From Gammaproteobacteria bacterium (lineage in GTDB: Bacteria; Pseudomonadota; Gammaproteobacteria; Enterobacterales; Alteromonadaceae): DNA of 62,595 bases. Under the pieces are notes generated by a model, which was not told where the DNA came from, ran no database searches, and saw only the letters and a program-made list of their open reading frames with translations. The position numbers were made by a program, and so were the translations under genes. The DNA is taken from contig NVTW01000009.1 in the NCBI GenBank assembly GCA_002401725.1, positions 32,258 through 94,852 of the forward strand. The letters are read 5' to 3'. Positions 2,020 to 17,821 of this stretch are shown piece by piece. Every line of letters begins with the position of its first letter. Position 1 is the stretch's first letter.

Positions 2020-2658
2020 TTGGTTCAAGGCAATTTATTTATATTATCTGCGCCAAGCGGGGCAGGTAAATCAAGTTTAATAAATGCATTATTAAGTGCA
2101 GACAATAAACAACAAGTTAAGCGCACTATGCAGGTGTCAATTTCGCACACCACGCGTGCACCTCGCTCTGGGGAAGTTAATGGCCAACATTATCATTTTG
2201 TCGATGTTGAACAATTTAAAAAACTAATCAACGACAATGCTTTTTATGAATATGCGCAAGTATTCGAGAACTATTATGGCACTTCAGAAGCGGCTATTGA
2301 TCAACAATTAGCCCAAGGTATCGATGTTTTTTTAGATATCGACTGGCAAGGTGCGCAACAAGTTCGCATCCGTAAGCCTGAAGTGACAACAATTTTTATT
2401 GCTCCACCATCACGCGATGAATTAGCAAATCGTTTACGTGATCGAGGTCAAGACAGTGAAGAAATTATTGCTACGCGCATGGCGCAAGCTCAGTCAGAAT
2501 GTTCGCACTACCACGAATTTGACTACATCATAGTAAACGATGATTTTAACCAAGCTTTAGACGATTTAAATACTATTGTGGTTAATCAAACACTAAAAAC
2601 AGCACAACAAACACAAAAACATCAGAGTTTATTTACTGAGCTATTGGCTAACAAGTAA
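2020..2658 (+). CDS. gmk: guanylate kinase
   Basis: [21 protein letters not shown]-loop resembles E. coli Gmk ([20 protein letters not shown]). TTG start. gmk-rpoZ-spoT synteny. Confidence 0.95.
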
Positions 2659-2714
2659 CTTTTGCGTATAATACAGGGCTATTTTATGAATTTTGTATGT
2701 GTTGGAGTGGCTTA

Positions 2715-2999
2715 ATGGCTCGTGTAACAGTTGAAGATGCAGTAGAAAAAGTTGGCAATCGTTTTGATTTGGTATTAATTGCATCTCGTCGTGCCCGTCA
2801 AATCGCTACCGGCGGTAAAGACCCTTTGGTGGACGCTGAAAATGATAAACCAACCGTAATAGCCTTAAGAGAAATTGAAGCTGGTTTAATTACCACTGAA
2901 ATTATGGATAACAGCGATCATCACGAACGTGTTCATCAAGAATCAGCCGAACTTGCTGCTGTTGCTGCCATTGTTGGTGGGCAACCTGAAGCAATGTAA
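2715..2999 (+). CDS. rpoZ: DNA-directed RNA polymerase subunit omega
   Basis: [29 protein letters not shown] is the canonical RpoZ N-terminus. The internal ATG at 2715 is chosen. Confidence 0.95.
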
Positions 3000-3053
3000 C
3001 TACTCAAATTGATTGTATAAAATACAATTACTTTAATAGTTAAGATAAAAACA

Positions 3054-3090
3054 TGAAAAAACGCATAACTTAATGGTTATGCGTTTTTTT
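3054..3090. terminator. bidirectional-looking intrinsic terminator/attenuator between rpoZ and spoT
   Basis: A-run, ACGCATAAC-ttaatg-GTTATGCGT 9-bp stem, then a T7 run. Confidence 0.5.
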
Positions 3091-3170
3091 ATGACTGTTT
3101 TTTATTGTTTGTGTTGGTATACTCAAAGCAGTGTTTGTCAGCTTTATTTCCTCATTTTCCGGAGTATTCG

Positions 3171-5291
3171 GTGTATCTTTTTGAACCACTAAAAGAATTT
3201 GTTTCAACTTATCTGTCAAAAGTACAAGTTGATTTATTAAAACAAGCTTACCTTGTTGCCCGCGAAGCACACGATGGACAAATGCGATCAAGCGGTGAAC
3301 CCTATATTACTCATCCTGTTGCAGTAGCACACAATCTTGCCAAAATGCACCTTGATCACGAAACCTTAATGGCGGCATTACTGCACGACGTTATTGAAGA
3401 TACTGAAGTAAGCAAAGAAGATTTGGCTAAACTATTTGGCAATACCGTCGCTGAATTGGTTGAAGGGGTAAGTAAACTAGACAAACTAAAATTTAATAAC
3501 AAGGAAGAAATGCAAGCTGAAAACTTCCGCAAAATGTTATTAGCTATGGTGCAAGACATCCGCGTTATTTTGATAAAACTCGCAGATAGAACCCATAACA
3601 TGCGCACTTTAGAGTCGCTTCGTCCTGATAAACGCCGCCGTATAGCGCGAGAAACGCTTGAAATTTATGCTCCCATAGCCAATCGTTTAGGTATTCACGA
3701 CATCAAAAATGAGCTTGAAGTTTTAGGCTTTGAAGCTTTATATCCAATGCGTTCTCGTGCTTTAAAATCAGCGATAAAACAAGCACGCGGTAATCGTAAA
3801 GAAATTATCAATAACATTATGGATGAAGTGCAAACCCGCCTTACTGAAACCGGCATTGACGCACAAGTTATTGGTCGTGAAAAACATTTATATTCTATAT
3901 ATCGCAAAATGTTAAACAAAGAATTAATGTTTAATGAAGTCATGGATATTTATGCCTTTCGAGTCATTGTTAAAGACAAAATTGATGATTGCTATCGCGC
4001 ACTCGGTGCGGTACATAATTTATTTAAGCCAATTGAAACTCGTTTTAAAGACTATATTGCTATTCCCAAAACCAATGGTTATCAGTCGTTACATACCTCA
4101 TTAATTGGCCCGCATGGTATTCCGGTAGAAATTCAAATTCGTACCCAAGACATGGATCAAATGGCCGACAAAGGTGTTGCCGCTCATTGGCTTTACAAAC
4201 AAGACGGTTCAAATACCGGCACCACCGCACAAATGAAAGCGCGCCGCTGGATGCAGAGCTTATTAGAATTACAACAAAGTGCCGGCAGTTCATTTGAATT
4301 TATTGAAAATGTAAAATCTGATTTATTCCCCGAAGAAATTTATGTATTTACTCCCGATGGACGCATTATTGAATTGCCCATGGGAGCTACAGCGGTTGAT
4401 TTTGCTTATGCAGTGCATACTGATGTCGGTAACTCTTGTGTTGGCGTAAAGGTTGATCGTAAGCCTTATCCCTTTAGCCAACCGCTTGATTCTGGTCAAA
4501 CGGTTGAAGTGATCACTTCACCTTCTGCTCGCCCTAATGCAACGTGGTTAAATTTTGTGGTAACCGCGAAAGCTCGTTTGCAAATACGAACTTATTTACG
4601 CTCACGCGAAAAAACTGAATCACACGCACTGGGTTTACGTTTATTAAGCCATGCGTTAGGGGCAACAAAATTAGAAGATATTGAGCAAGAAAAAATAGAT
4701 CAAGTTATTAGTGAAACCGGTAATAACAGCTTTGATGAATTATTGATTAATATTGGTTTAGGTAATGCTTTAAGCATAGGAATAGCGCGACGTTTAACCG
4801 GTGAATTTACTGATGATAAAACATTAGATGATGAAACTGATGACGATAGCAGTAAAGTAAAAATGCCCATAAAAGGCACCGAAGGCATGATGGTAAGTTA
4901 CGGTAAATGTTGTCGTCCAATTCCTGGTGATTCCATTGTTGCCTATTTGAGCCCAGGCAAAGGCTTGATGGTACATCAGCAAGGTTGTCGTAATATTAAA
5001 GGCCATGAGTCAGGCAAATTATTTCCGGTAAAATGGGATAAAGATATAGATCGCGAATTTATTGCCCGTTTACGTATTGTTATTATTAATCATCAGGGTG
5101 CTTTAGCTAAACTAACCAATGTAATAGCGCACTGTGAATCGAATGTACAGTCTTTAAATTCTGAAGAAAAAGACGCTAGTTTATATATCATCAATCTTGA
5201 AATAACTTGTCGAGATCGTATTCACCTTGCTGATATTATTCGAAAAATAAAAGTAATTATTGATGTGCAAAAAATAGTGCGCATTAAATAA
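3171..5291 (+). CDS. spoT: bifunctional (p)ppGpp synthetase/hydrolase SpoT
   Basis: (V)YLFEPLKEFVSTYL…AYLVAREAHDGQMRSSGEPYITHPVAVA parallels the E. coli SpoT N-terminus. HD, RelA/SpoT, TGS and ACT regions are recognisable. GTG 3171 has a GGAG 7 nt upstream. Confidence 0.92.
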   Translation: MYLFEPLKEFVSTYLSKVQVDLLKQAYLVAREAHDGQMRSSGEPYITHPVAVAHNLAKMHLDHETLMAALLHDVIEDTEVSKEDLAKLFGNTVAELVEGVSKLDKLKFNNKEEMQAENFRKMLLAMVQDIRVILIKLADRTHNMRTLESLRPDKRRRIARETLEIYAPIANRLGIHDIKNELEVLGFEALYPMRSRALKSAIKQARGNRKEIINNIMDEVQTRLTETGIDAQVIGREKHLYSIYRKMLNKELMFNEVMDIYAFRVIVKDKIDDCYRALGAVHNLFKPIETRFKDYIAIPKTNGYQSLHTSLIGPHGIPVEIQIRTQDMDQMADKGVAAHWLYKQDGSNTGTTAQMKARRWMQSLLELQQSAGSSFEFIENVKSDLFPEEIYVFTPDGRIIELPMGATAVDFAYAVHTDVGNSCVGVKVDRKPYPFSQPLDSGQTVEVITSPSARPNATWLNFVVTAKARLQIRTYLRSREKTESHALGLRLLSHALGATKLEDIEQEKIDQVISETGNNSFDELLINIGLGNALSIGIARRLTGEFTDDKTLDDETDDDSSKVKMPIKGTEGMMVSYGKCCRPIPGDSIVAYLSPGKGLMVHQQGCRNIKGHESGKLFPVKWDKDIDREFIARLRIVIINHQGALAKLTNVIAHCESNVQSLNSEEKDASLYIINLEITCRDRIHLADIIRKIKVIIDVQKIVRIK

Positions 5292-5294
5292 AAA

Positions 5295-5434
5295 CATGCC
5301 TATGCACTTGGCTCAGGATCGTCATTCTCGCAGTCTTTTAAGCGAGAATCTAGCTCAAAAAGCATGAGTTCTTCGATAAAAACGTCTCGAAGATGACGAA
5401 TATAATAAATACCTGAGTGATCTGCATAGGCATG
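5295..5434. repeat. ~140-nt imperfect palindrome in the spoT-ridA spacer
   Basis: CATGCCTATGCA (5295-5306) pairs perfectly with TGCATAGGCATG (5423-5434). Inner arms CTCAGG/CCTGAG and TCGTCAT/ATGACGA also pair. Confidence 0.6.
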
Positions 5435-5488
5435 AATAAAAATTAGTCATCCTATTATTTATTAACTATTTATAAGGAAATTATAAAA

Positions 5489-5878
5489 ATGAAATCTATC
5501 GTTAAAACCGAGCAAGCACCAAGCGCTATCGGCACTTATAGCCAAGCCGTAAAAGTTAACAGCACCGTTTATTTGTCAGGGCAAATACCGTTAGTGCCAG
5601 CAACAATGGAAATTGTTTCTACTGATTTTGCCGCACAAGCAGAACAAGTATTTAAAAATTTATCGGCCGTTTGCCAAGCTGCGGGGGGCGAAATTAACAA
5701 CATGGTAAAAGTAAATATTTTTATGACCGACTTAAACAACTTTGCCACCGTTAACGAAGTAATGAGTCGCTATTTTAACGAACCTTACCCAGCACGTGCA
5801 GCGATTGAAATATCAAAATTACCTAAAGGTGTTGATATTGAAATTGATGGTATAATGGAATTGCCGACCACTAATTAA
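5489..5878 (+). CDS. ridA: RidA/YjgF-family enamine/imine deaminase
   Basis: TEQAPSAIGTYSQAV…YLSGQIPL…PARAAIEISKLPKG is the typical RidA signature. Confidence 0.88.
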   Translation: MKSIVKTEQAPSAIGTYSQAVKVNSTVYLSGQIPLVPATMEIVSTDFAAQAEQVFKNLSAVCQAAGGEINNMVKVNIFMTDLNNFATVNEVMSRYFNEPYPARAAIEISKLPKGVDIEIDGIMELPTTN

Positions 5879-6803: not shown

Positions 6804-8939
6804 ATGAATAACCATTTACAACAGCCCACTAAACTAACCGACAAGCTTGATAATCTCGCTAAAACTCCCTTATCAGCACTTAAAGGTGTTGGCCCAAGTA
6901 TAGTCACTAAGCTTGAAAAAATAGGCTTATTATCGCTTGCCGATTTACTCTTTCATTTGCCGCTTCGTTATGAAGATAGAACGCGCGTTACCAGAATACG
7001 CGATTTAATGGCGGGTATTTCAACGAATATTATTGGCGAGGTAGTAAATAGCCAAATAGTTAATGGTAAACGCCGGATGTTAGTGGTAACACTCAATGAT
7101 GGTAGCGGTACTATTAATTTGCGATTTTTTCATTTTAGCGCCAGCCAAAAAAACAGCCTTGCTCTCGGCACAGAAATTCGTTGTTATGGTGAAATTAATC
7201 ACGGCGCGCGTGGTTTTGAAATTGTTCATCCTGAATATAAACGCCTAGATCAAGACCAAGCCATCACCCCTGTTGAAGAAACCCTCACCCCTGTTTACCC
7301 TACTACCGATGGTTTACGACAAATAACGCTACGTAATTTATCGGAACAAGCATTAAAGCGCTTAAACAATATTGAAGTCGAAGAATTATTACCACCTGAA
7401 TTTTGTCCTCACGGTTTAACGTTAACGCAAGCCCTTAAAATAGTGCATCGACCGCCGCCCGATGTTTCTATTAACTTATTAGAATTAGGTCGCCATCCAG
7501 CACAACTACGTTTAATAAAAGAAGAATTACTTGCACATAATCTAAGTATGTTAAAACTCCGCCAAAGTAGCGATGTTCATCCTGCGCGTTCTTTGGTTAT
7601 TGATAAAAAGCTTGATGAAAAATTTTTAGCTGGCTTGCCTTTTTCACCGACTAATGCCCAACAACGCGTAGTAAATGACATTCGCCTAGATCTTGCTAAA
7701 AGCCAACCAATGATGCGTTTGGTGCAAGGCGATGTTGGTTCAGGTAAAACATTAGTCGCCGCACTTACAGCATTAACTGCTATTAGCCAAGGTTTTCAGG
7801 TAGCGTTGATGGCACCAACAGAAATATTAGCAGAACAACATGCACTTAATTTTGCTCACTGGTTTGAACCACTAGGCATAAAAACCGGTTGGTTAGCCGG
7901 AAAAACTAAAGCCAAAGCACGCCGAGAAGCCTTAGCAACAATTGCCAGCGGCGAAATGCAAATGGTACTTGGCACCCATGCACTATTCCAAGAGCAAGTT
8001 AAATTTCATAATCTACAATTAATTATTATTGACGAACAGCATAGATTTGGCGTACACCAACGGTTATCGTTACGCGAAAAAGGCTCGCTCGACGGATATT
8101 ATCCTCATCAACTGATCATGACAGCAACACCTATTCCACGAACATTAGCGATGACCGCTTATGCCGATTTAGACACTTCAATTATTGACGAATTACCGCC
8201 AGGACGTACGCCAATAACCACCGTAGCGATCAGTGATAACCGCCGTGATGATGTGATCGAAAGAATTCGCCAAGCCTGCTCTAGCCCAGTTAAAGATGGA
8301 AAAAAGCGTCAAGCTTATTGGGTATGTACCTTAATTGAAGAATCTGAAGTGCTTGAATGCCAAGCTGCCGAAGATACCGCCACTTATTTGCAAGCGCAAT
8401 TAACCGAGTTAGTCATTGGATTAGTGCATGGCAGAATGAAAGCGGCAGAAAAACAAGCGGTGATGGATCGTTTTAAACAGGGTGAAGTTGATTTGTTAGT
8501 GGCAACTACAGTTATAGAAGTAGGCGTTGATGTGCCCAATGCCAGCTTAATGATAATAGAAAACCCCGAACGTTTAGGCTTAGCACAGCTACATCAACTC
8601 CGTGGTCGAGTTGGGCGCGGCGCGGTAGCCTCACATTGTGTACTAATGTATAAAAGTCCGTTATCAAAAACTGCCACTAAACGCATTAATGTGTTGCGCG
8701 AAAGTAATGACGGCTTTTATATCGCGCAAAAAGATCTAGAAATTCGCGGTCCCGGTGAAGTACTAGGCACCAAACAAACCGGCTTAGCGAATTTAAAAAT
8801 TGCTGATTTAGCACGAGATGCTGAACTTATTCCTGAAGTGCAAGAACATGCTTATTTGTTGATCAAACAATATCCGCAACATAGCCAAGCCATTATAGAT
8901 CGTTGGTTAATAAATAAAGAAAAATACGCAAACGCATAA
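6804..8939 (+). CDS. recG: ATP-dependent DNA helicase RecG
   Basis: LLFHLPLRYEDRT wedge motif, GDVGSGKT Walker A, DEQHRFG box, QLHQLRGRVGRG motif. Confidence 0.95.
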   Translation: MNNHLQQPTKLTDKLDNLAKTPLSALKGVGPSIVTKLEKIGLLSLADLLFHLPLRYEDRTRVTRIRDLMAGISTNIIGEVVNSQIVNGKRRMLVVTLNDGSGTINLRFFHFSASQKNSLALGTEIRCYGEINHGARGFEIVHPEYKRLDQDQAITPVEETLTPVYPTTDGLRQITLRNLSEQALKRLNNIEVEELLPPEFCPHGLTLTQALKIVHRPPPDVSINLLELGRHPAQLRLIKEELLAHNLSMLKLRQSSDVHPARSLVIDKKLDEKFLAGLPFSPTNAQQRVVNDIRLDLAKSQPMMRLVQGDVGSGKTLVAALTALTAISQGFQVALMAPTEILAEQHALNFAHWFEPLGIKTGWLAGKTKAKARREALATIASGEMQMVLGTHALFQEQVKFHNLQLIIIDEQHRFGVHQRLSLREKGSLDGYYPHQLIMTATPIPRTLAMTAYADLDTSIIDELPPGRTPITTVAISDNRRDDVIERIRQACSSPVKDGKKRQAYWVCTLIEESEVLECQAAEDTATYLQAQLTELVIGLVHGRMKAAEKQAVMDRFKQGEVDLLVATTVIEVGVDVPNASLMIIENPERLGLAQLHQLRGRVGRGAVASHCVLMYKSPLSKTATKRINVLRESNDGFYIAQKDLEIRGPGEVLGTKQTGLANLKIADLARDAELIPEVQEHAYLLIKQYPQHSQAIIDRWLINKEKYANA

Positions 8940-10528: not shown

Positions 10529-12178
10529 GTGCGTATTCAACGGCTTTATAAAATACTAAAAACATTTTTACAGTACGGTTTAGACGAATTAGTACCCAAA
10601 AAAATGTTACCTTGGTACGCCAAATTAGCCCGTTTTAGCTTGTTTTGGCTGCGTAATAAACATCAAAACGAAAGTACTGCACAACGATTTCGTTTAGCCA
10701 TAGAAACATTAGGCCCGGTGTTTATTAAGTTTGGCCAAATGTTATCCACTCGTCGCGATTTATTACCCCCTGATTTTTCTAATGAATTAGCCCTGCTGCA
10801 AGATAAAGTAACCCCTTACGATGGCGAACAAGCAAAACAGTTAATCATTCGCGCGATTGGCGAAGAACGCTTTAACCAACACTTTACCGATTTTAACAGC
10901 ACACCCTTAGCTTCTGCGTCTATTGCGCAAGTACATACAGCAACACTGAATATTGATGACACCCAGCACGATATAGTGATCAAAGTATTACGTCCAAATA
11001 TTAGAGAAATCATTTTAGCTGACATCAAAGTAATGTCGTTATTTGCTGGCATCGTTGCCCGTTGGCTACCCGATGGTAAACGCTTACGTCCGGTAGAAGT
11101 AGTTGAAGAATATCGCAAAACCATTATTGATGAACTTGATCTAAATCGCGAAGGCGCCAACGCAATTCAACTAAGACGTAATTTTTCGCAAGGCACCCCG
11201 GAAAGTAAAAAATATGATCACGTTTTATATGTGCCTGAAATTTACAGTGAGTTTTCCCATAAAAACGTACTCGTAATGGAACGAATTTACGGTATTGGTG
11301 TTGGTGAAATAGACGAATTACAGCGCCGCAATGTCAACATGAAATTACTTGCAGAACGTGGCGTGGAAGTATTTTTCACCCAAGTTTTTCGCGATAGTTT
11401 TTTTCATGCCGACATGCATCCGGGTAATGTTTTTGTTGATGCTACTAATCCTGACGATCCCACTTGGATCGCGATTGATTGCGGCATTGTTGGCACATTA
11501 AACAAAGAAGATAAACGTTACTTAGCTGAAAATTTTGTTGCCTTTTTTAATCGTGATTATCGTAAAGTGGCACAATTGCACGTTGACTCAGGCTGGGTAC
11601 CTAAAAATACCAGTGTTGATGAATTCGAATTTGCCATTCGTACCGTGTGCGAACCTATTTTTAATAAACCGTTAGCCGAAATTTCTTTCGGGCAAGTATT
11701 AGTTAACTTATTTAACACCGCACGACGCTTCAATATGGAAGTGCAGCCACAGCTAGTTTTATTACAAAAAACGCTGTTATATATTGAAGGCTTAGGACGC
11801 CAGCTTTATCCACAACTCGACTTATGGCAAACCGCAAAACCCTTTTTAGAAAACTGGGTAAAAGAACAAATGGGTGTAAAAGCGGTATTCAAAAAAATTA
11901 AAGACAACCTACCATTTTGGAATGAAAAACTCCCCGAAATGCCCGACTTACTTTACGACTATTTAACTACTGGTAAGCACCATCATCAACAGCAAAGTGA
12001 GTTATTAACACAACTTGCCAACCAAAACCAACGTCAACAACGCAACATCATTTTTAGTGTGCTGGGCGTCGGTTTTTTAGTGGTAAGTTCTGTTTTATAT
12101 AGTCAACAACAAATAATGATTGCAGGTGTTTGTGCCGCAATAAGTGCTCTTTTTATGCTTTCGTCGTTACGGAAATAG
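10529..12178 (+). CDS. ubiB: ubiquinone biosynthesis regulatory kinase-like protein UbiB
   Basis: [19 protein letters not shown] and [18 protein letters not shown] resemble E. coli UbiB. ABC1-kinase motif HADMHPGN. C-terminal TM helices. GTG start. Confidence 0.92.
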
Positions 12179-12355
12179 CATGAGCTTAAATAAATTATTT
12201 TTTTGTTTTCATACTTTTTTACTGACAACTTACCAACATACAGATAAATTTATTTTAAAAAATTAGCTAAAACTTGATATCCATCAAAAACACTTTCAGA
12301 TTATTTAGTTAGTCTTATTGTCCCACCAATCTTTTTAACGTGTGTAATTGGGCTA

Positions 12356-12616
12356 ATGACAACAAAAACTGAAAGCTATATAAAGATGTTAATGGCATCT
12401 AACATGCTACAACCCGTCGACGACAGAGCAGCAGAACTCTATGGGCGAATCGATGCAAAAGAGCGTATGGCAGAATATTTACAAGACCTTTGCCCATCAG
12501 TACTTGGATTGAATGTTACCACTGAGCAATGCGTAAAATTTGAAAAAAGCTGCGGGATTAATTTTTTAGAAATAGCTGAAGTGATTATGGCAAGACAAGA
12601 TGAACTAGACGAATAA
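12356..12616 (+). CDS. hypothetical small protein (shares an FE.xCGINF motif with prophage ORF 29391-29870)
   Basis: 86-aa ORF in the accessory island. No family recognised. Confidence 0.4.
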   Translation: MTTKTESYIKMLMASNMLQPVDDRAAELYGRIDAKERMAEYLQDLCPSVLGLNVTTEQCVKFEKSCGINFLEIAEVIMARQDELDE

Positions 12617-12843
12617 ACGTCCCAGCATTACTTAAAACAGCAAATCAACATAGACAATATCAAGCCAATTCAGTTAAAAGTATAAACATATTATCAAATG
12701 ATGAAACATTAAGGTTACAGGGCTTTTACGAAAGATAGTGACCAATGATCATAATTTTACACCTGTAGTGCTTGTCATTCATTTATTGTTAGTATACAGT
12801 TTGTTACCTTAGATGTAATAAACCGTATACCAATAGGTAAGTA

Positions 12844-13371
12844 ATGAGTAAGTCTGAAAAACTCACATCGGCTATAGCCAAATCAATAGCCTCTGGAGGT
12901 AGTGTCTTTGATATTGCTGAACTTGCCTATTTTTTAGGTGAGCAGGTAACACCAAAACTTAACAAGTTTTTATCTGATTGTGTTAAAAAGGGCACACTGA
13001 TAAGAGTAGCAAAAGGCATATACACCAGCTCAATTACTCCTCCCGATCTATCAAAAGCACTTTTTAATGTTGCCAAAAAGCTAAGAGCTGATTTTTTTAA
13101 CTATATTAGCCTTGAAAGCCAACTAAGCCATACGGGTGATATATCGCAAATCACCATGGATAGGTTAACAATTATGACTAAAGGAAGAAAAGGAGAATTT
13201 GATACAGTTTACGGTATCGTCGAATTTATTCATACTAAGAAAACCCTAGCGCAATTAGAAAATGATGTGTACTTTGACTTCGATATTAAAATGTTCCGAG
13301 CAAGTACAAGTCGGGCAATAGCGGATCTAAAAGCTTGTCGACGCAATACCCATATGCTGGAGAAAAGTTAA
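12844..13371 (+). CDS. AbiEi-like antitoxin (type IV TA, N-terminal wHTH)
   Basis: VFDIAELAYFLGE…L..CVKKGTLIRVAKGIYTS resembles the AbiEi_4 N-terminal domain. Its stop overlaps the next ATG (TAATG). Confidence 0.55.
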   Translation: MSKSEKLTSAIAKSIASGGSVFDIAELAYFLGEQVTPKLNKFLSDCVKKGTLIRVAKGIYTSSITPPDLSKALFNVAKKLRADFFNYISLESQLSHTGDISQITMDRLTIMTKGRKGEFDTVYGIVEFIHTKKTLAQLENDVYFDFDIKMFRASTSRAIADLKACRRNTHMLEKS

Positions 13372-13739
13372 TGCTATCGCGTTACATCAATCAAATTCTA
13401 AAGCAGCACCCTGAATATGCAGGAATAATCCCTGTGATTGAAAAAGAAATTTTACATCATGACATCATGCATGTTCTCGTAAAGCAAGGAGCCTTACAAC
13501 AGCTAACATTCATTGGTGGAACATCGCTCAGACTCTGTTATAACAGCTCTCGGCTTTCAGAAGATCTAGATTTCAATGGCGGCCATAACTTCAAGCCATC
13601 AGATTTCAATGGACTTGAAAATGATATTCAGCACTACCTTTCAAAAAAACACGAAGTTAAGGTATGGGTAAATAAACCGAATCAAGAAAAACAAGGTAAT
13701 TATCAGACGTCAACTACTTTGGCCGACCGGTCAAGTTAA
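13371..13739 (+). pseudogene. AbiEii/DUF1814 nucleotidyltransferase toxin, N-terminal ~120 aa only (3'-truncated)
   Basis: FIGGTSLRLCYNSSRLSEDLDF matches the nucleotidyltransferase GG[ST]…R.S.D[IL]DF motif. Full-length family members are about twice this size. Confidence 0.6.
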
Positions 13740-13794
13740 TTGTCGCCTAATAATAGACCCTAAAACATTTTGGAGTGCTGAGATTACAGCCAAA

Positions 13795-14205
13795 ATGAGC
13801 GTAGATTTCTGCCAAGAAATATATCCAAGTCAATTATTCCTTGAAGAGGTAAAAAAAGGAGAGCCTTCAAAACAATTTGCCAAAGTAAAAAACAATCACA
13901 ACAATGAAGAGGGCGTCAGTTTTAATTCAGTTAAAATCGGAGCCGCGATACAAATGATCGATGATTGGTATAGTGACGGAGTATCTAAGCCTATACGCGC
14001 TCATGAGTATGGAGCTGATAGCGAATTAATCATTGCACGACGTCCTCCTCAATCTAAACTAGATTTCTATTCATTACTCTCTAACTCTGAAAAGTATTTA
14101 AATGTACTATCGACCGTAAAAAACAACCAAATTCCCCCTGAGATTTTGTATGTTTTTTCTATTCTTATAAAAGGCGGAATGTTTCAAAAAAAGGGAGAAC
14201 ATTAG
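13795..14205 (+). pseudogene. cas7f: Cas7f (Csy3) C-terminal fragment; the frame is open and possibly homologous from ~13750
   Basis: QEIYPSQ…IGAAIQMIDDWY…SKLDFYSLL…ILIKGGMF aligns with PA14 Csy3 QEVFPSQ…IGNALRTIDTWY…QKLDFYTLL…NLIRGGVF. The N-terminal two-thirds of the protein are absent. Confidence 0.75.
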
Positions 14206-14262
14206 TGTGCGTTATTATTTTATGATTCGATTTTTACCGTCCAAGGCAACATCCCTTTATTA

Positions 14263-14820
14263 ATGGGGCGGTGTATTTCAACGTTGCACAACTATATATC
14301 AAAGAATAAAATTCAAGATTTAGGTGTTAACTTTCCGGATTGGTCTGCGTCTTCAATAGTCCAAGTTATTTCTTTCATTCATAAGGACACTAGAACCTTA
14401 GATGACCTTAAAAAGCAGGCTTATTTTATTGATATGCTTGATTGCGGGTTCTTCAAAATAAGTGAGACACTTTTAGTTCCAAGCACTTGCCAGGAAGTTC
14501 GTTTTGTTAGAAATCAGTCAATTTCAAAATTATTTCAAGGCAGTGCTAAAAGGAGGTTAAAACGTATTAAAAAGAGAGCGGAGAGCCAGGGACGTTCTTT
14601 TAATCCCCAAAAAACAATACCTCCAAAAGAAGTCGATATGTTTCATAGAGTTTTAATGAACAGTTCAAGTAATCAACACGATTTTATAATACACATTCAA
14701 AAAGAAAGTAATATGGAAATATCTACACCTTGCTTTAATAGCTATGGTCTTTCAACGAATCAGTTATTTAAAGGAACAGTACCAGACTTATCAAAACTAG
14801 TTTTAGAAAATAATTTTTAG
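14263..14820 (+). CDS. cas6f: Cas6f (Csy4) CRISPR endoribonuclease; the N-terminal strand is encoded in another frame upstream (14207-14263), so probably inactivated
   Basis: STLHNY…LGVNFPDW…VRFVRNQS…AKRRLKRIKKRA…FNSYGLS…GTVP aligns with PA14 Csy4 GKLHQA…IGVSFPDL…RQVSRVQA…ERLRRRLMRR…FTCYGLSKGGFVPWF. Confidence 0.8.
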   Translation: MGRCISTLHNYISKNKIQDLGVNFPDWSASSIVQVISFIHKDTRTLDDLKKQAYFIDMLDCGFFKISETLLVPSTCQEVRFVRNQSISKLFQGSAKRRLKRIKKRAESQGRSFNPQKTIPPKEVDMFHRVLMNSSSNQHDFIIHIQKESNMEISTPCFNSYGLSTNQLFKGTVPDLSKLVLENNF

Positions 14821-14935
14821 ATATTAACCATTGGATCGAAAATAGACTTAAACGAAGAAAAAATGAGGTTTTTTACAAAAAAGAACATGCGGTTCGCATG
14901 AACTTTTAACCAATATGGCTATATTTTAAAACTGA

Positions 14936-15223
14936 ATGGGGGGAATAATGGAGCAAACAAATAAGACTGAGCTAGAAAGTAATGAATCTAATTTTCCAAA
15001 CATGGCGCAGTGTTGCGGGAAGTTTTTTGACGAAAATGAAAAGTCCTATTTATTTTTGACATTAGTTGCTTGGGCTGGCTCAGATATTAAAGCTACAGCC
15101 TGGTTTAAATCTGAGACCATTTCAGCATTTGGCGGTAAAACAGCACTTGAACTTTGCAAAAACAATCAACCAGATGCCGTGATTAAATACATTCGCCACA
15201 TAGAGCAAGGAGGGTTTGCATAG
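14936..15223 (+). CDS. DUF2384 (Xre/MbcA/ParS-type antitoxin C-terminal domain) protein, orphan
   Basis: C-terminus WFKSETISAFGGKTALELCKNNQPDAVIKYIRHIEQGGF fits the DUF2384 pattern (W…lgG.tPlel…g…v…L..ie.G). No RES-type partner follows. Confidence 0.55.
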   Translation: MGGIMEQTNKTELESNESNFPNMAQCCGKFFDENEKSYLFLTLVAWAGSDIKATAWFKSETISAFGGKTALELCKNNQPDAVIKYIRHIEQGGFA

Positions 15224-15293
15224 TGTATTCTTATATATTAAAGCTACAAGTTGAACAGAGCAAAAAAAACTTTCTGATAAGGATGGATATGGT

Positions 15294-15506
15294 ATGAACG
15301 ATGCTGCTAATAATGAAACAGCACAACATGCTATGCAAAAGCTTTTTGACGCCAACGAAAACATGGCAACAATTGCTCTAACTAAAAATGGAGTTGTAGC
15401 GTACCATTTCGGAGAGAACGGTGGGATGGCTATAAATCCAGCGTGGGCAGAAATTGTCATTAACGCTGTTAAAGAACTGTCTAAATTAGAACAGAATGAT
15501 GGGTAA
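15294..15506 (+). CDS. hypothetical 70-aa ORF ending on the first CRISPR repeat (may be leader, not coding)
   Basis: ORF only. The TAA stop at 15504-15506 abuts/overlaps repeat 1. Confidence 0.3.
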   Translation: MNDAANNETAQHAMQKLFDANENMATIALTKNGVVAYHFGENGGMAINPAWAEIVINAVKELSKLEQNDG

Positions 15507-15653
15507 TAACCTGCCGAATAGGCAGCTGAAAATTATAATACCATTACATCATATCGAAAAACAATATGAACTACCGAATAGGTAGCTGAAGAAAAAAACA
15601 ATCGATTCGAAGTTTATGTAAACCATAACCCTGCCGAACAGGCAGGAAAAGCC
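15506..15653 (+). CRISPR. mini CRISPR array, type I-F-like: 3 repeats (28 nt) and 2 spacers (32 nt)
   Basis: R1 ATAACCTGCCGAATAGGCAGCTGAAAAT (15506-15533). S1 TATAATACCATTACATCATATCGAAAAACAAT. R2 ATGAACTACCGAATAGGTAGCTGAAGAA (15566-15593). S2 AAAAACAATCGATTCGAAGTTTATGTAAACCA. R3 TAACCCTGCCGAACAGGCAGGAAAAGCC (15626-15653). Stems start at 15511, 15571 and 15631, an exact 60-nt period. The core resembles the I-F repeat GTTCACTGCCGTATAGGCAGCTAAGAAA. Confidence 0.8.
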
Positions 15654-15680
15654 TTTTATATGGAATTAATAGGCTTTTTG
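15647..15680 (+). terminator. rho-independent terminator closing the array transcript
   Basis: AAAAGCCT (15647-15654) pairs with AGGCTTTT (15671-15678), followed by a T-run. Confidence 0.55.
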
Positions 15681-15717
15681 TAATTTTATTACATCCAACA
15701 AATAGATAGCAAACCAA

Positions 15718-15822
15718 TTTGTCAAAGTATGGTTAAGTAGTTTTGACAACGTATGGGTTTATAGGTTTTGTAAGTCATTGTTTTATAACACCGCCATTTG
15801 ACAGAGTATGGATTTAGCTACA
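15718..15822. mobile_element. Tn7-like transposon left end (three TnsB-type binding repeats, terminal …ACA)
   Basis: TTTGTCAAAGTATGGTTAA (15718-15736), TTTGACAACGTATGGGTTT (15742-15760), TTTGACAGAGTATGGATTT (15797-15815), then AGCTACA ending at 15822. Read inward this is TGTAGCTAAATCCATAC…, the Tn7-family 5'-TGT tip with dispersed left-end-type sites. Confidence 0.62.
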
Positions 15823-15893
15823 AAAAACATCACAATTTTAGATGAGAATGCTGCTAATTCTCATTTCGCTCTTTATTAGGAACATTTTACCGT

Positions 15894-17821
15894 ATGCGCG
15901 TTTCCACCTTTTCTCGTTTATCTGCGATTGCCATAGGCATTTTTATCATTCTTTTTATTGGTACTATGTATCAAATTTCTACTACGCTAACAAAAAGTAA
16001 AATTCAACTCGCTAATTATCAACAATTAAAATCATTAGCGACCATTGACTTTTATCGTACTATTGCAATTTATTTGCAGCATGGTGACGCCAGTTTACTC
16101 AATAAAGCTGAACATCAGCTTGACCGTATTATTAATATTACAGCACGTATTGGTATTAAATCGTTCGAACAAAACTTAAATATCCAAGTGATTCAATTAA
16201 AAAGGGATTTAAAACAAAAATTTCGTGCTATGGGTAAATTAAGTGGTGATCCATATATTTTAATCAAGAACAACGAACAAGGTCTGATCTCGTTAAATAC
16301 TGAACTGCAAAACTACGCACAAAACAGTACAGAACTGGCCAGTAAAGAACAAAAAGTATATCTTAATATCACTCAAAATATCGCCAAGCAATACTTCACG
16401 CCAGAGAACACTTATTTTCAACTAAATCCATAGATACCCGTGATATTGATAATAAAATAACTCAACTAATAGTACTAATATCCCAATTAAAGAAGTTACC
16501 TCTGCTCGGTATCTACCCTGCCGTAGAAAATGATGATGATGAATTATTACTTGGTGAAGAAGATAATAGCGATCTGAGTGAAGATGCAATAAACGAACTA
16601 TCCTCTTTAGCACAGCGTTATCATGGTGAAATTGCTAATACCATCAAGCTCACTTCTCAAAAACGAAATGGTTTAGAATTATTAACAAGTTCTGTAGCGG
16701 CTATTGAACACTACATCCTACAAGCGGAAAAAGAAATAAATCAACAACAAGATCACGTAAATCAACTATTAAAATCTATAATCAGCGTTTTATTGGCATT
16801 TCTCATTGTTTTTCTTGCGTCAAATTATGGGCTAATGCGTTCAGTAGTACTTAACCCTTTACGTAAATTACGCGACAGTTTTGTTCAACTTGATCAACAA
16901 GGACAAGTAGATAACATTTTGGGGATCAATCCAAAAACTGAATTGGGACAAATTGCTAGTAGTTTTAATAAATTAGTCAACAAACTTGCTGAAGATGATA
17001 AACAAAAAGCTCATCAACTCAATTTAGTTTCGAATGCTTTACAGTCAATGGAAAATCAAGCTGAGCATATCCTTCACTCGTCACACAGTACTACCGGACA
17101 CCTTAGCGATGTTCGCACCATAATGACCACACTAACCACAGTTACCAATACGGTAAGTGCCTTGTCTCAGCAAGTAGTTGACAATGCCCAAGCTACACAA
17201 CTAGCCATGACTAAAAGTCAATCTCAAGTAAATCAAGTGATTGCAGCAAGTAATTCTACCAATGTTGCGACCATTTCTGCGCAAAAATCTATTCAATCTT
17301 TAGGCGATTCTGTCGACAGTGTCAGTAGTATTGTTGGTGTGATCAGCGCTATAGCCGATCAGACAAATTTACTCGCCTTAAATGCCGCCATTGAAGCGGC
17401 GCGAGCGGGTGAACATGGTCGTGGTTTTTCGGTGGTTGCTGACGAAGTAAGAAAATTAGCAGGTAAAACTCAGGAATCATTACAGCAAGTCAGTAAACGT
17501 TTAGAAAATTTACAAACTGCTAGCCAAGCTTTAGAAAATAACATGCAAGGAATAGAGCAAGCGTCTAGTCAGCAGCAAACAATTTCACAACAACTAAAAA
17601 ACAATGCTGAAGAGGTACTAAATCAAGCGCTAACCTCAGCTTCTGTTGCCCATACTACAATGCAGCATATTACCAATCAGCAACAGCAATTCATTAGTTT
17701 TGAGTCGGCCATCAACAAAGTAAATAACGAAGTAAATCAATCCAGTGATCTGGCTAAAAACATTTCTAATGATGTTGTACGCCAAGTTAGTGACATAAAT
17801 CAAACCTTGATTGTTGCTTAA
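15894..17821 (+). pseudogene. methyl-accepting chemotaxis protein interrupted by one frameshift (or a sequencing error)
   Basis: The N-terminal TM and sensor ORF stops at 16433. The frame carrying TM2/HAMP/signalling domain (…[32 protein letters not shown]…) is open from 16367 and continues to 17821. Confidence 0.8.

Follow-up and report, generated by a model that had tools for sequence, protein, structure and literature searches.

The left end of a decayed, rsmJ-homing Tn7-like CAST of type I-F3b upstream of a chemoreceptor gene

We analyzed a stretch of 62,595 nucleotides (the window) from a gammaproteobacterial genome. We are highly confident that positions 15718-15822 of the window are the left end of a Tn7-like CRISPR-associated transposon (CAST) of type I-F3b, which belongs to the rsmJ-homing sub-branch and is preserved as a relic. 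The features of this end are given below; the TnsB-binding and IHF sites are putative and were assigned from architecture and homology.

15718-15736, plus strand: putative TnsB-binding site L3, innermost, TTTGTCAAAGTATGGTTAA
15742-15760, plus strand: putative TnsB-binding site L2, 5 bp from L3, TTTGACAACGTATGGGTTT
15771-15783, minus strand: predicted IHF-like site AAACAATGACTTA, in the 36-bp gap between L1 and L2 (15761-15796)
15797-15815, plus strand: putative TnsB-binding site L1, terminal, TTTGACAGAGTATGGATTT
15815-15822, minus strand: 8-bp terminal repeat, read inward 5'-TGTAGCTA; 15822 is the final base of the transposon
15823-15827, plus strand: 5-bp target-site duplication AAAAA; the second copy lies at 7381-7385 of contig C37 (TTTTT on that strand)

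The initial annotation had reported three 19-nt repeats followed by AGCTACA and AAAAA and had read them as a left end of the Tn7 family with dispersed sites. The repeats were seen as described. Their starts are 24 and 55 nt apart and all of them are on the plus strand, L1 being followed by AGCTACA (15816-15822) and then by AAAAA. Counted from the tip, the order is the 8-bp terminal repeat, L1, a gap of 36 bp, L2, a gap of 5 bp and L3. The ATG start codon of a chemoreceptor (MCP) gene at 15894 is located 71 nt past the tip. With one mismatch allowed, the core TTTGACANNGTATGG of the repeats occurs three times in the window, always at the left end, while 300 shuffled sequences gave a mean of 0.14 and a maximum of 2 occurrences under the same setting. 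A looser test with up to two mismatches (3 found vs. 2.1 expected) was not discriminating on its own, and inverted copies of the repeat were not found within the window at this threshold. In type I-F CASTs a conserved IHF site, WATCARNNNNTTR, lies between L1 and L2 (Walker et al., PMC10201428). As read from the sequence, AAACAATGACTTA agrees with this consensus at eight of nine specified positions, with one mismatch, and the consensus together with the expected position suggests an IHF site in the L1-L2 gap.

The genome (3.2 Mb) was scanned for the motif with up to two mismatches. The sole other cluster lying beside the same tip was found on C37, while the remaining matches were scattered and isolated. 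The search for inverted copies, which had been proposed to locate the right end, was therefore successful on another contig of the same genome and not in the window. On C37, positions 7334-7380 read ATTGACATAGTATGAGTTT-AA-TTTGACATGGTATGGATTT-AGCTACA and are followed by TTTTT, which corresponds to AAAAA in the orientation of the window. The two sites are 2 bp apart, the terminal repeat TGTAGCTA occupies 7380-7373, an L1-type site plus tip extends over 7355-7380, and the 13-nt tip TGTAGCTAAATCC is identical to that of the window. This region is the partner right end of the left end in the window; it has lost one site.

In their layout, both ends resemble those of PseCAST, a type I-F element of Pseudoalteromonas with an 8-bp terminal repeat starting with TGT and 19-bp TnsB sites. 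The three sites of its left end are spaced by 36 and 4 bp and the three of its right end by 2 and 3 bp (PMC13598128). The left gaps are 36 and 5 bp in the element described here compared to 36 and 4 bp, and the right gap is 2 bp compared to 2-3 bp; the right end has two sites instead of three. The dispersed left-end sites and the contiguous right-end sites thus fit the published I-F CAST architecture (PMC13598128), as the initial annotation had anticipated. VchCAST (Tn6677) of Vibrio cholerae, which contains three TnsB sites per end, shares three left-end sites, their asymmetric placing, an IHF site between L1 and L2 (here predicted) and an array near the left end (PMC10201428). Tn6677, however, belongs to the I-F3a branch and has another attachment site, and the IHF-like site found here deviates from the consensus by one mismatch. 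Common features with the prototype Tn7 are the TGT...ACA ends, dispersed left and closely packed right TnsB sites and a 5-bp duplication. The transposase of the prototype Tn7 is a heteromer of TnsA and TnsB. It differs in that its target is chosen by TnsD at glmS or by TnsE and not by a crRNA, in that its right-end sites overlap, and in that it contains neither cas genes nor an array.

The insertion itself could be followed on an empty site. In an independent metagenome run (X7), we found a contig of 3655 nt on which the rsmJ flank passes via a single AAAAA into the window sequence at position 15823. Positions 2828-3347 of this contig align to C37 7381-7900 and positions 3343-3653 align to window 15823-16133; the two alignments overlap by 5 nt, the single AAAAA, and their loose ends reciprocally read the other flank. 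This empty site places the tips at 15822 (left) and C37 7380 (right) and shows that the 5-bp duplication derives from one insertion event. The TGT tip and the AAAAA duplication, which had been postulated from the left end, are thereby borne out by the TTTTT at the right end and by the single AAAAA in X7. The proof comprises one contig of one independent metagenome. In the independent samples X5 and X6, the junction of the left end with the MCP gene or of the right end with rsmJ was unchanged. Among Thalassotalea and Colwellia relatives, rsmJ is directly followed by an orthologous MCP gene and then by an HI0933-like gene, while in two genomes of the same genus rsmJ is followed by HI0933 or SpoU. 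A homologue of 13700-15900 was absent from four genomes of the same genus. The element has inserted between rsmJ and the MCP gene, duplicating AAAAA.

The gene next to the left end is the ancestral neighbor of rsmJ and lies outside of the element:

15894-17821, plus strand: flanking chemoreceptor (MCP) gene, split by a frameshift into 15894-16433 and 16793-17821

Its frame change is due to the lack of 10 nt (ATGTGCTATT), which are present after 16386 in the X7 strain. The three repeats lie at a distance of 80-175 bp from the MCP start, on its upstream side, and include TTGACA, which is similar to a -35 hexamer; they could therefore be taken for operator sites of a transcription factor controlling the MCP promoter. 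This interpretation is extremely improbable. The X7 strain shares the sequence upstream of the MCP gene only from 15823 on and carries the rsmJ flank before that position. The motif is missing from the rsmJ-MCP intergenic region of eight relatives in which both genes are adjacent; the presence of the repeats at orthologous MCP promoters had been named as the observation that would speak against a transposon end. Moreover, next to rsmJ on C37 as well as in other rsmJ CASTs, these sites occur again together with the tip. We therefore excluded the operator function on account of the empty site and the eight orthologous promoters without the motif; the repeats in front of the chemoreceptor gene have no regulatory role. 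The insertion 71 nt upstream of its ATG may have cut the MCP gene off from upstream promoter elements. Between the tip and the start codon, a 23-nt palindrome (ATGAGAATGCTGCTAATTCTCAT) resides at 15842-15864. Since the X7 empty-site contig contains it as well, it belongs to the native flank; it may serve as an operator. Further downstream in the window, beyond a SpoU-like gene, a long block of open reading frames (20700-62595), mostly on one strand, contains ORFs of 975 and 1701 aa and resembles a prophage or another mobile element.

Inside of the left end, remnants of a type I-F CRISPR system were identified:

13750-14205, plus strand: 3' fragment of cas7 (Csy3), pseudogene; Pfam Cas_Csy3, profile positions 215-328 of 328 only
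14207-14820, plus strand: cas6 (Csy4) with a frameshift in its 5' part; Pfam Cas_Csy4, long ORF at 14263-14820
14936-15506, plus strand: two small ORFs between cas6 and the array, of 95 aa (weak Xre_MbcA_ParS_C match) and 70 aa
15506-15653, plus strand: type I-F CRISPR mini-array with three repeats, period of 60 nt (28-nt repeats, 32-nt spacers)
15506-15533, 15566-15593 and 15626-15653, plus strand: CRISPR repeats
15534-15565, plus strand: spacer 1
15594-15625, plus strand: spacer 2, rsmJ homing guide, last in the array and placed between atypical repeats

In a comparison with the 365-residue Cas7 of a Shewanella rsmJ CAST, the cas7 fragment shows 57% identity to residues 195-342, and Cas6 is 51% identical to Cas6 of the Shewanella CAST over residues 14-199. 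Read from the sequence, the N-terminal strand VRYYFMIRFLP of Cas6 is encoded in another frame than the long ORF. The two small ORFs are kept at the same place in a related CAST of the DT_4 MAG (contig L083). The array repeats carry the type I-F stem CTGCCG...GGCAG, which is altered on both sides in repeat 2 (CTACC..GGTAG), while repeat 3 is atypical. The order cas7, cas6, array and end corresponds to the left arm of type I-F3 CASTs, and in I-F3b elements the array follows the tniQ-cas operon with the homing spacer in last place (bioRxiv 10.1101/2020.07.02.184150). A search of Rfam (E <= 1) over 12100-16500 gave no match, including the CRISPR repeat families, and in a scan for promoters and terminators only the CRISPR hairpins exceeded the level of shuffled sequences. 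At 15646-15682, immediately behind the last CRISPR repeat, lies a hairpin with a subsequent T-run (AAAGCCT...AGGCTTTTTG). It is conserved in the DT_4 element and may terminate the transcript of the array.

Spacer 2 matches the last codons at the 3' end of rsmJ on C37 (7428-7459) at 27 of 32 positions. The five mismatches reside at positions 6, 12, 15, 18 and 30, four of them on every-sixth positions, and the spacer positions 6 to 30 in steps of six correspond to codon position 3 (wobble) of rsmJ, a gene called by Pfam SAM_MT. The same every-sixth wobble register has been described for guides homing to rsmJ, yciA and guaC (Petassi et al., bioRxiv 10.1101/2020.07.02.184150). The protospacer begins 47 nt past the right tip on C37, on the opposite strand. 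Its PAM is TG and not the canonical CC. This objection is softened by the behavior of the rsmJ element Tn7479, which was reported to be nearly PAM-less and to insert at 46-49 bp (PMC9723613). An identical spacer 2 is present in the element of the DT_4 MAG, where spacer 1 differs. Allowing up to eight mismatches, spacer 1 had no match in the genome except for one hit with eight mismatches that looks like chance.

By published description, the closest kind of elements are the rsmJ-homing I-F3b CASTs Tn7479 (Psychromonas sp. RZ5) and Tn7480 (Colwellia polaris) (PMC9723613). With these and with the rsmJ sub-branch of Petassi et al., the element shares the attachment downstream of rsmJ, the last spacer between atypical repeats and the wobble register, as well as terminal inverted repeats, the 5-bp duplication and the tolerance of a non-CC PAM. 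The insertion distance of 47 nt compares to 46-49 bp published for rsmJ CASTs. Unlike them, the element consists of two non-contiguous arms only, tnsB, tnsC, cas8, most of tniQ and the 5' half of cas7 being absent and cas6 being frameshifted.

The loss of the machinery was studied on both arms. Just inside of the right end, where tnsA-tnsB-tnsC would be expected, only tnsA fragments were found, covering residues 1-160/174 and 18-63. What is left of the tniQ-cas8/5-cas7-cas6 operon are residues 1-38 of TniQ, detected by tblastn on C37, the cas7 portion in the left arm and the frameshifted cas6. No match was obtained in the genome by tblastn with TnsB, TnsC and Cas8 of relatives; as the MAG is 79% complete, the absence of these genes is strong but not absolute. 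Since the tnsABC set is incomplete, the locus was filed as a relic of a type I-F3 CAST and not as a functional member. Within the limits of this MAG, the analysis showed that the element has decayed, tnsB, tnsC, cas8, the 5' half of cas7 and tniQ beyond its first 38 codons being gone.

The right arm (C37, L001, 6000-7380) is scrambled. Partial copies of the 5' region of tnsA lie at 7123-6947 and 6561-6093, with a tniQ scrap of 38 codons (6692-6579) in between, and a 56-nt piece is an inverted match to the sequence just after tnsB of DT_4. The arm may be the trace of tandem insertions or of an internal rearrangement. Beyond the tnsA and tniQ scraps, C37 contains attC-like repeats of 95 nt, DUF4160 and DUF2442 cassettes and fragments of IS110. 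Repeats of approximately 95 nt are found at 2361-2451, 3009-3106, 5235-5333 and 5687-5788, where they flank the DUF4160/DUF2442 pairs and the IS110-family fragments, and form dense clusters in related genomes. The region 2300-5800 looks like chromosomal-integron cassettes with attC sites inside of the former transposon.

Given the incomplete MAG and the intact appearance of the left end, the array and the homing spacer, the genes might be missing from the assembly only, the CAST being complete and still mobile or the left end being part of a second element that has no relation to the right end on C37. We regard this as very improbable. Within the contiguous window, cas7 is truncated at the junction with a short IS-like unit and cas6 is frameshifted, and an independent sample carries the junction of the truncated abiEii and cas7 genes without differences. 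The housekeeping genes upstream of the left arm also argue against an intact element. On C37, the truncated tnsA is followed by the integron-like cassettes rather than by tnsB, and both ends are traced back to one insertion by the single empty-site contig and by the identity of the duplication. An intact element was excluded because the truncations lie within contiguous sequence.

Toward the inside, the transposon-derived DNA of the window ends at a short unit, the left arm comprising 13753-15822:

13701-13752, plus strand: 52-nt mini-element, two abutting imperfect inverted terminal repeats of an IS

The unit begins with TATCAGACGTCAAC and terminates with GTTAATTGTCGCCTAATA, its halves are inverted repeats of each other, and it exactly joins a truncated abiEii gene to the truncated cas7. 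Copies with unrelated flanks are located at C45:7497-7548 and C49:10858-10905. On one contig of run X6, the two halves are separated by approximately 2.3 kb, and the read depth at 13724-13752, the right half of the unit, was very high in all metagenome runs. By its structure, the unit looks like a minimal derivative of an IS. Elsewhere in the genome, about 35 copies of a repeat containing TTAGACAATGCATGGAGCATATTGTCCTGAATCTA are spread over many contigs (e.g., C1:113155, C20:121396 and C34:93731) and probably represent an IS end or a REP-like element.

Upstream of the left arm, the window contains the gene order gmk-rpoZ-spoT-ridA-trmH-recG-ubiE-ubiJ-ubiB, ending at 12178. It is followed by an 86-aa ORF, which also follows ubiB in genomes of the same genus, by abiEi and by the truncated abiEii. 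The abiE genes were considered as cargo of the transposon. This was rejected because the X7 strain, in which abiEii continues past 13700, contains ubiB, the 86-aa ORF, abiEi and abiEii together with the empty site but lacks 13802-15803; hence, the abiE genes are chromosomal. The left arm is joined to them by an IS-linked rearrangement, and the right arm resides beside rsmJ on the other contig. In a genome of the same genus, a LysR/YeiH gene pair lies within 4 kb after ubiB and the 86-aa ORF, while in this genome the pair is located beyond rsmJ and an amylase gene on C37. A simple one-step inversion was tried as the route by which the arms were separated and failed to fit all adjacencies. The assembly did not contain a reciprocal junction, the 3' half of abiEii or an alternative flank of the 52-nt repeat.

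The arms might in reality be contiguous, and the left arm might have been linked to abiEii and ubiB by a chimeric assembly at the 52-nt repeat. In favor of this, contigs of the likely source runs end at 13701-13754, where several alternative flanks come together. Such an artifact is unlikely. In X5, which originates from an unrelated study, a 329-nt contig spans 13666-13994 without differences. Furthermore, homology to cas7 starts at residue 195 right after the repeat, so the gene is truncated whatever lies to the left. A chimera would affect only the context and not the identity of the left end.

Related elements were found in other genomes. The DT_4 MAG (Alteromonadaceae) harbors behind rsmJ the tip TGTAGCTA, three right-end sites and a TnsA that is 82-83% identical to the fragment on C37, while another of its contigs contains the 3' end of cas6, the same two small ORFs, the array and the left end. 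Both ends of this element are flanked by a duplication of its own, AGAAT. In its left end (L083/L085 1101-1150), only two TnsB sites, spaced by 5 bp, are present and the 36-bp gap is missing, indicating that the three-site layout is not universal in the clade. With two left and three right sites in DT_4 versus three left and two right sites here, sites seem to have been lost by deletion between direct repeats. Shewanella sp. UCD-KL21 contains a complete element behind rsmJ, with tnsA-tnsB-tnsC, cargo, tniQ-cas8-cas7-cas6 and a CRISPR array, and similar sites just after rsmJ were found in several other Shewanella genomes. A search of 400 genomes of the order for the pattern of L1 plus tip gave two diverged single hits only. 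A search for related loci based on Cas6 revealed no relative; the relatives were reached through RsmJ.

How an intact element would work is drawn from the literature, while the present locus itself documents what the end is and where it stops, that 5 bp were duplicated, that the guide matches rsmJ and that the machinery was lost. By analogy with the family, TnsB protomers would bind the three 19-bp sites L1-L3 and the sites of the right end, and IHF would probably bend the 36-bp gap between L1 and L2. TnsA and TnsB would cut at the 8-bp terminal repeats beginning with TGT. TniQ-Cascade with a crRNA from the last spacer, spacer 2, would bind the 3' end of rsmJ, and TnsC would direct the insertion to a position approximately 47-49 bp downstream, right end first and with a 5-bp duplication. 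The left end in the window is therefore a structurally intact but inert fossil, whose activity would require a cognate TnsABC in trans.

Structurally, the separated ends still appear competent, as each of them retains a terminal repeat and two or more TnsB sites; the homing-guide cassette is intact. There is a small chance that the relic could matter if a related rsmJ CAST enters the cell. In this case, the TnsB sites beside rsmJ could immunize the attachment site against re-colonization, in the manner of Tn7-type target immunity. Alternatively, the transposase of the incoming element could use the separated ends as substrates, so that the chromosome between them would be broken or rearranged.

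For genome annotation, the data imply that cas7, cas6 and the mini-array near ubiB are transposon debris and not a defense system. The locus adds a member from the Colwelliaceae to the small rsmJ sub-branch and leaves the knowledge of how such elements work unchanged. It provides a clean natural example of the decay of a CRISPR-guided transposon, in which single-base resolution was reached for both tips, for the duplication and for the ancestral empty site, and in which the guide and the architecture of the ends have been preserved while the machinery was lost and the arms were parted by an IS-linked rearrangement.
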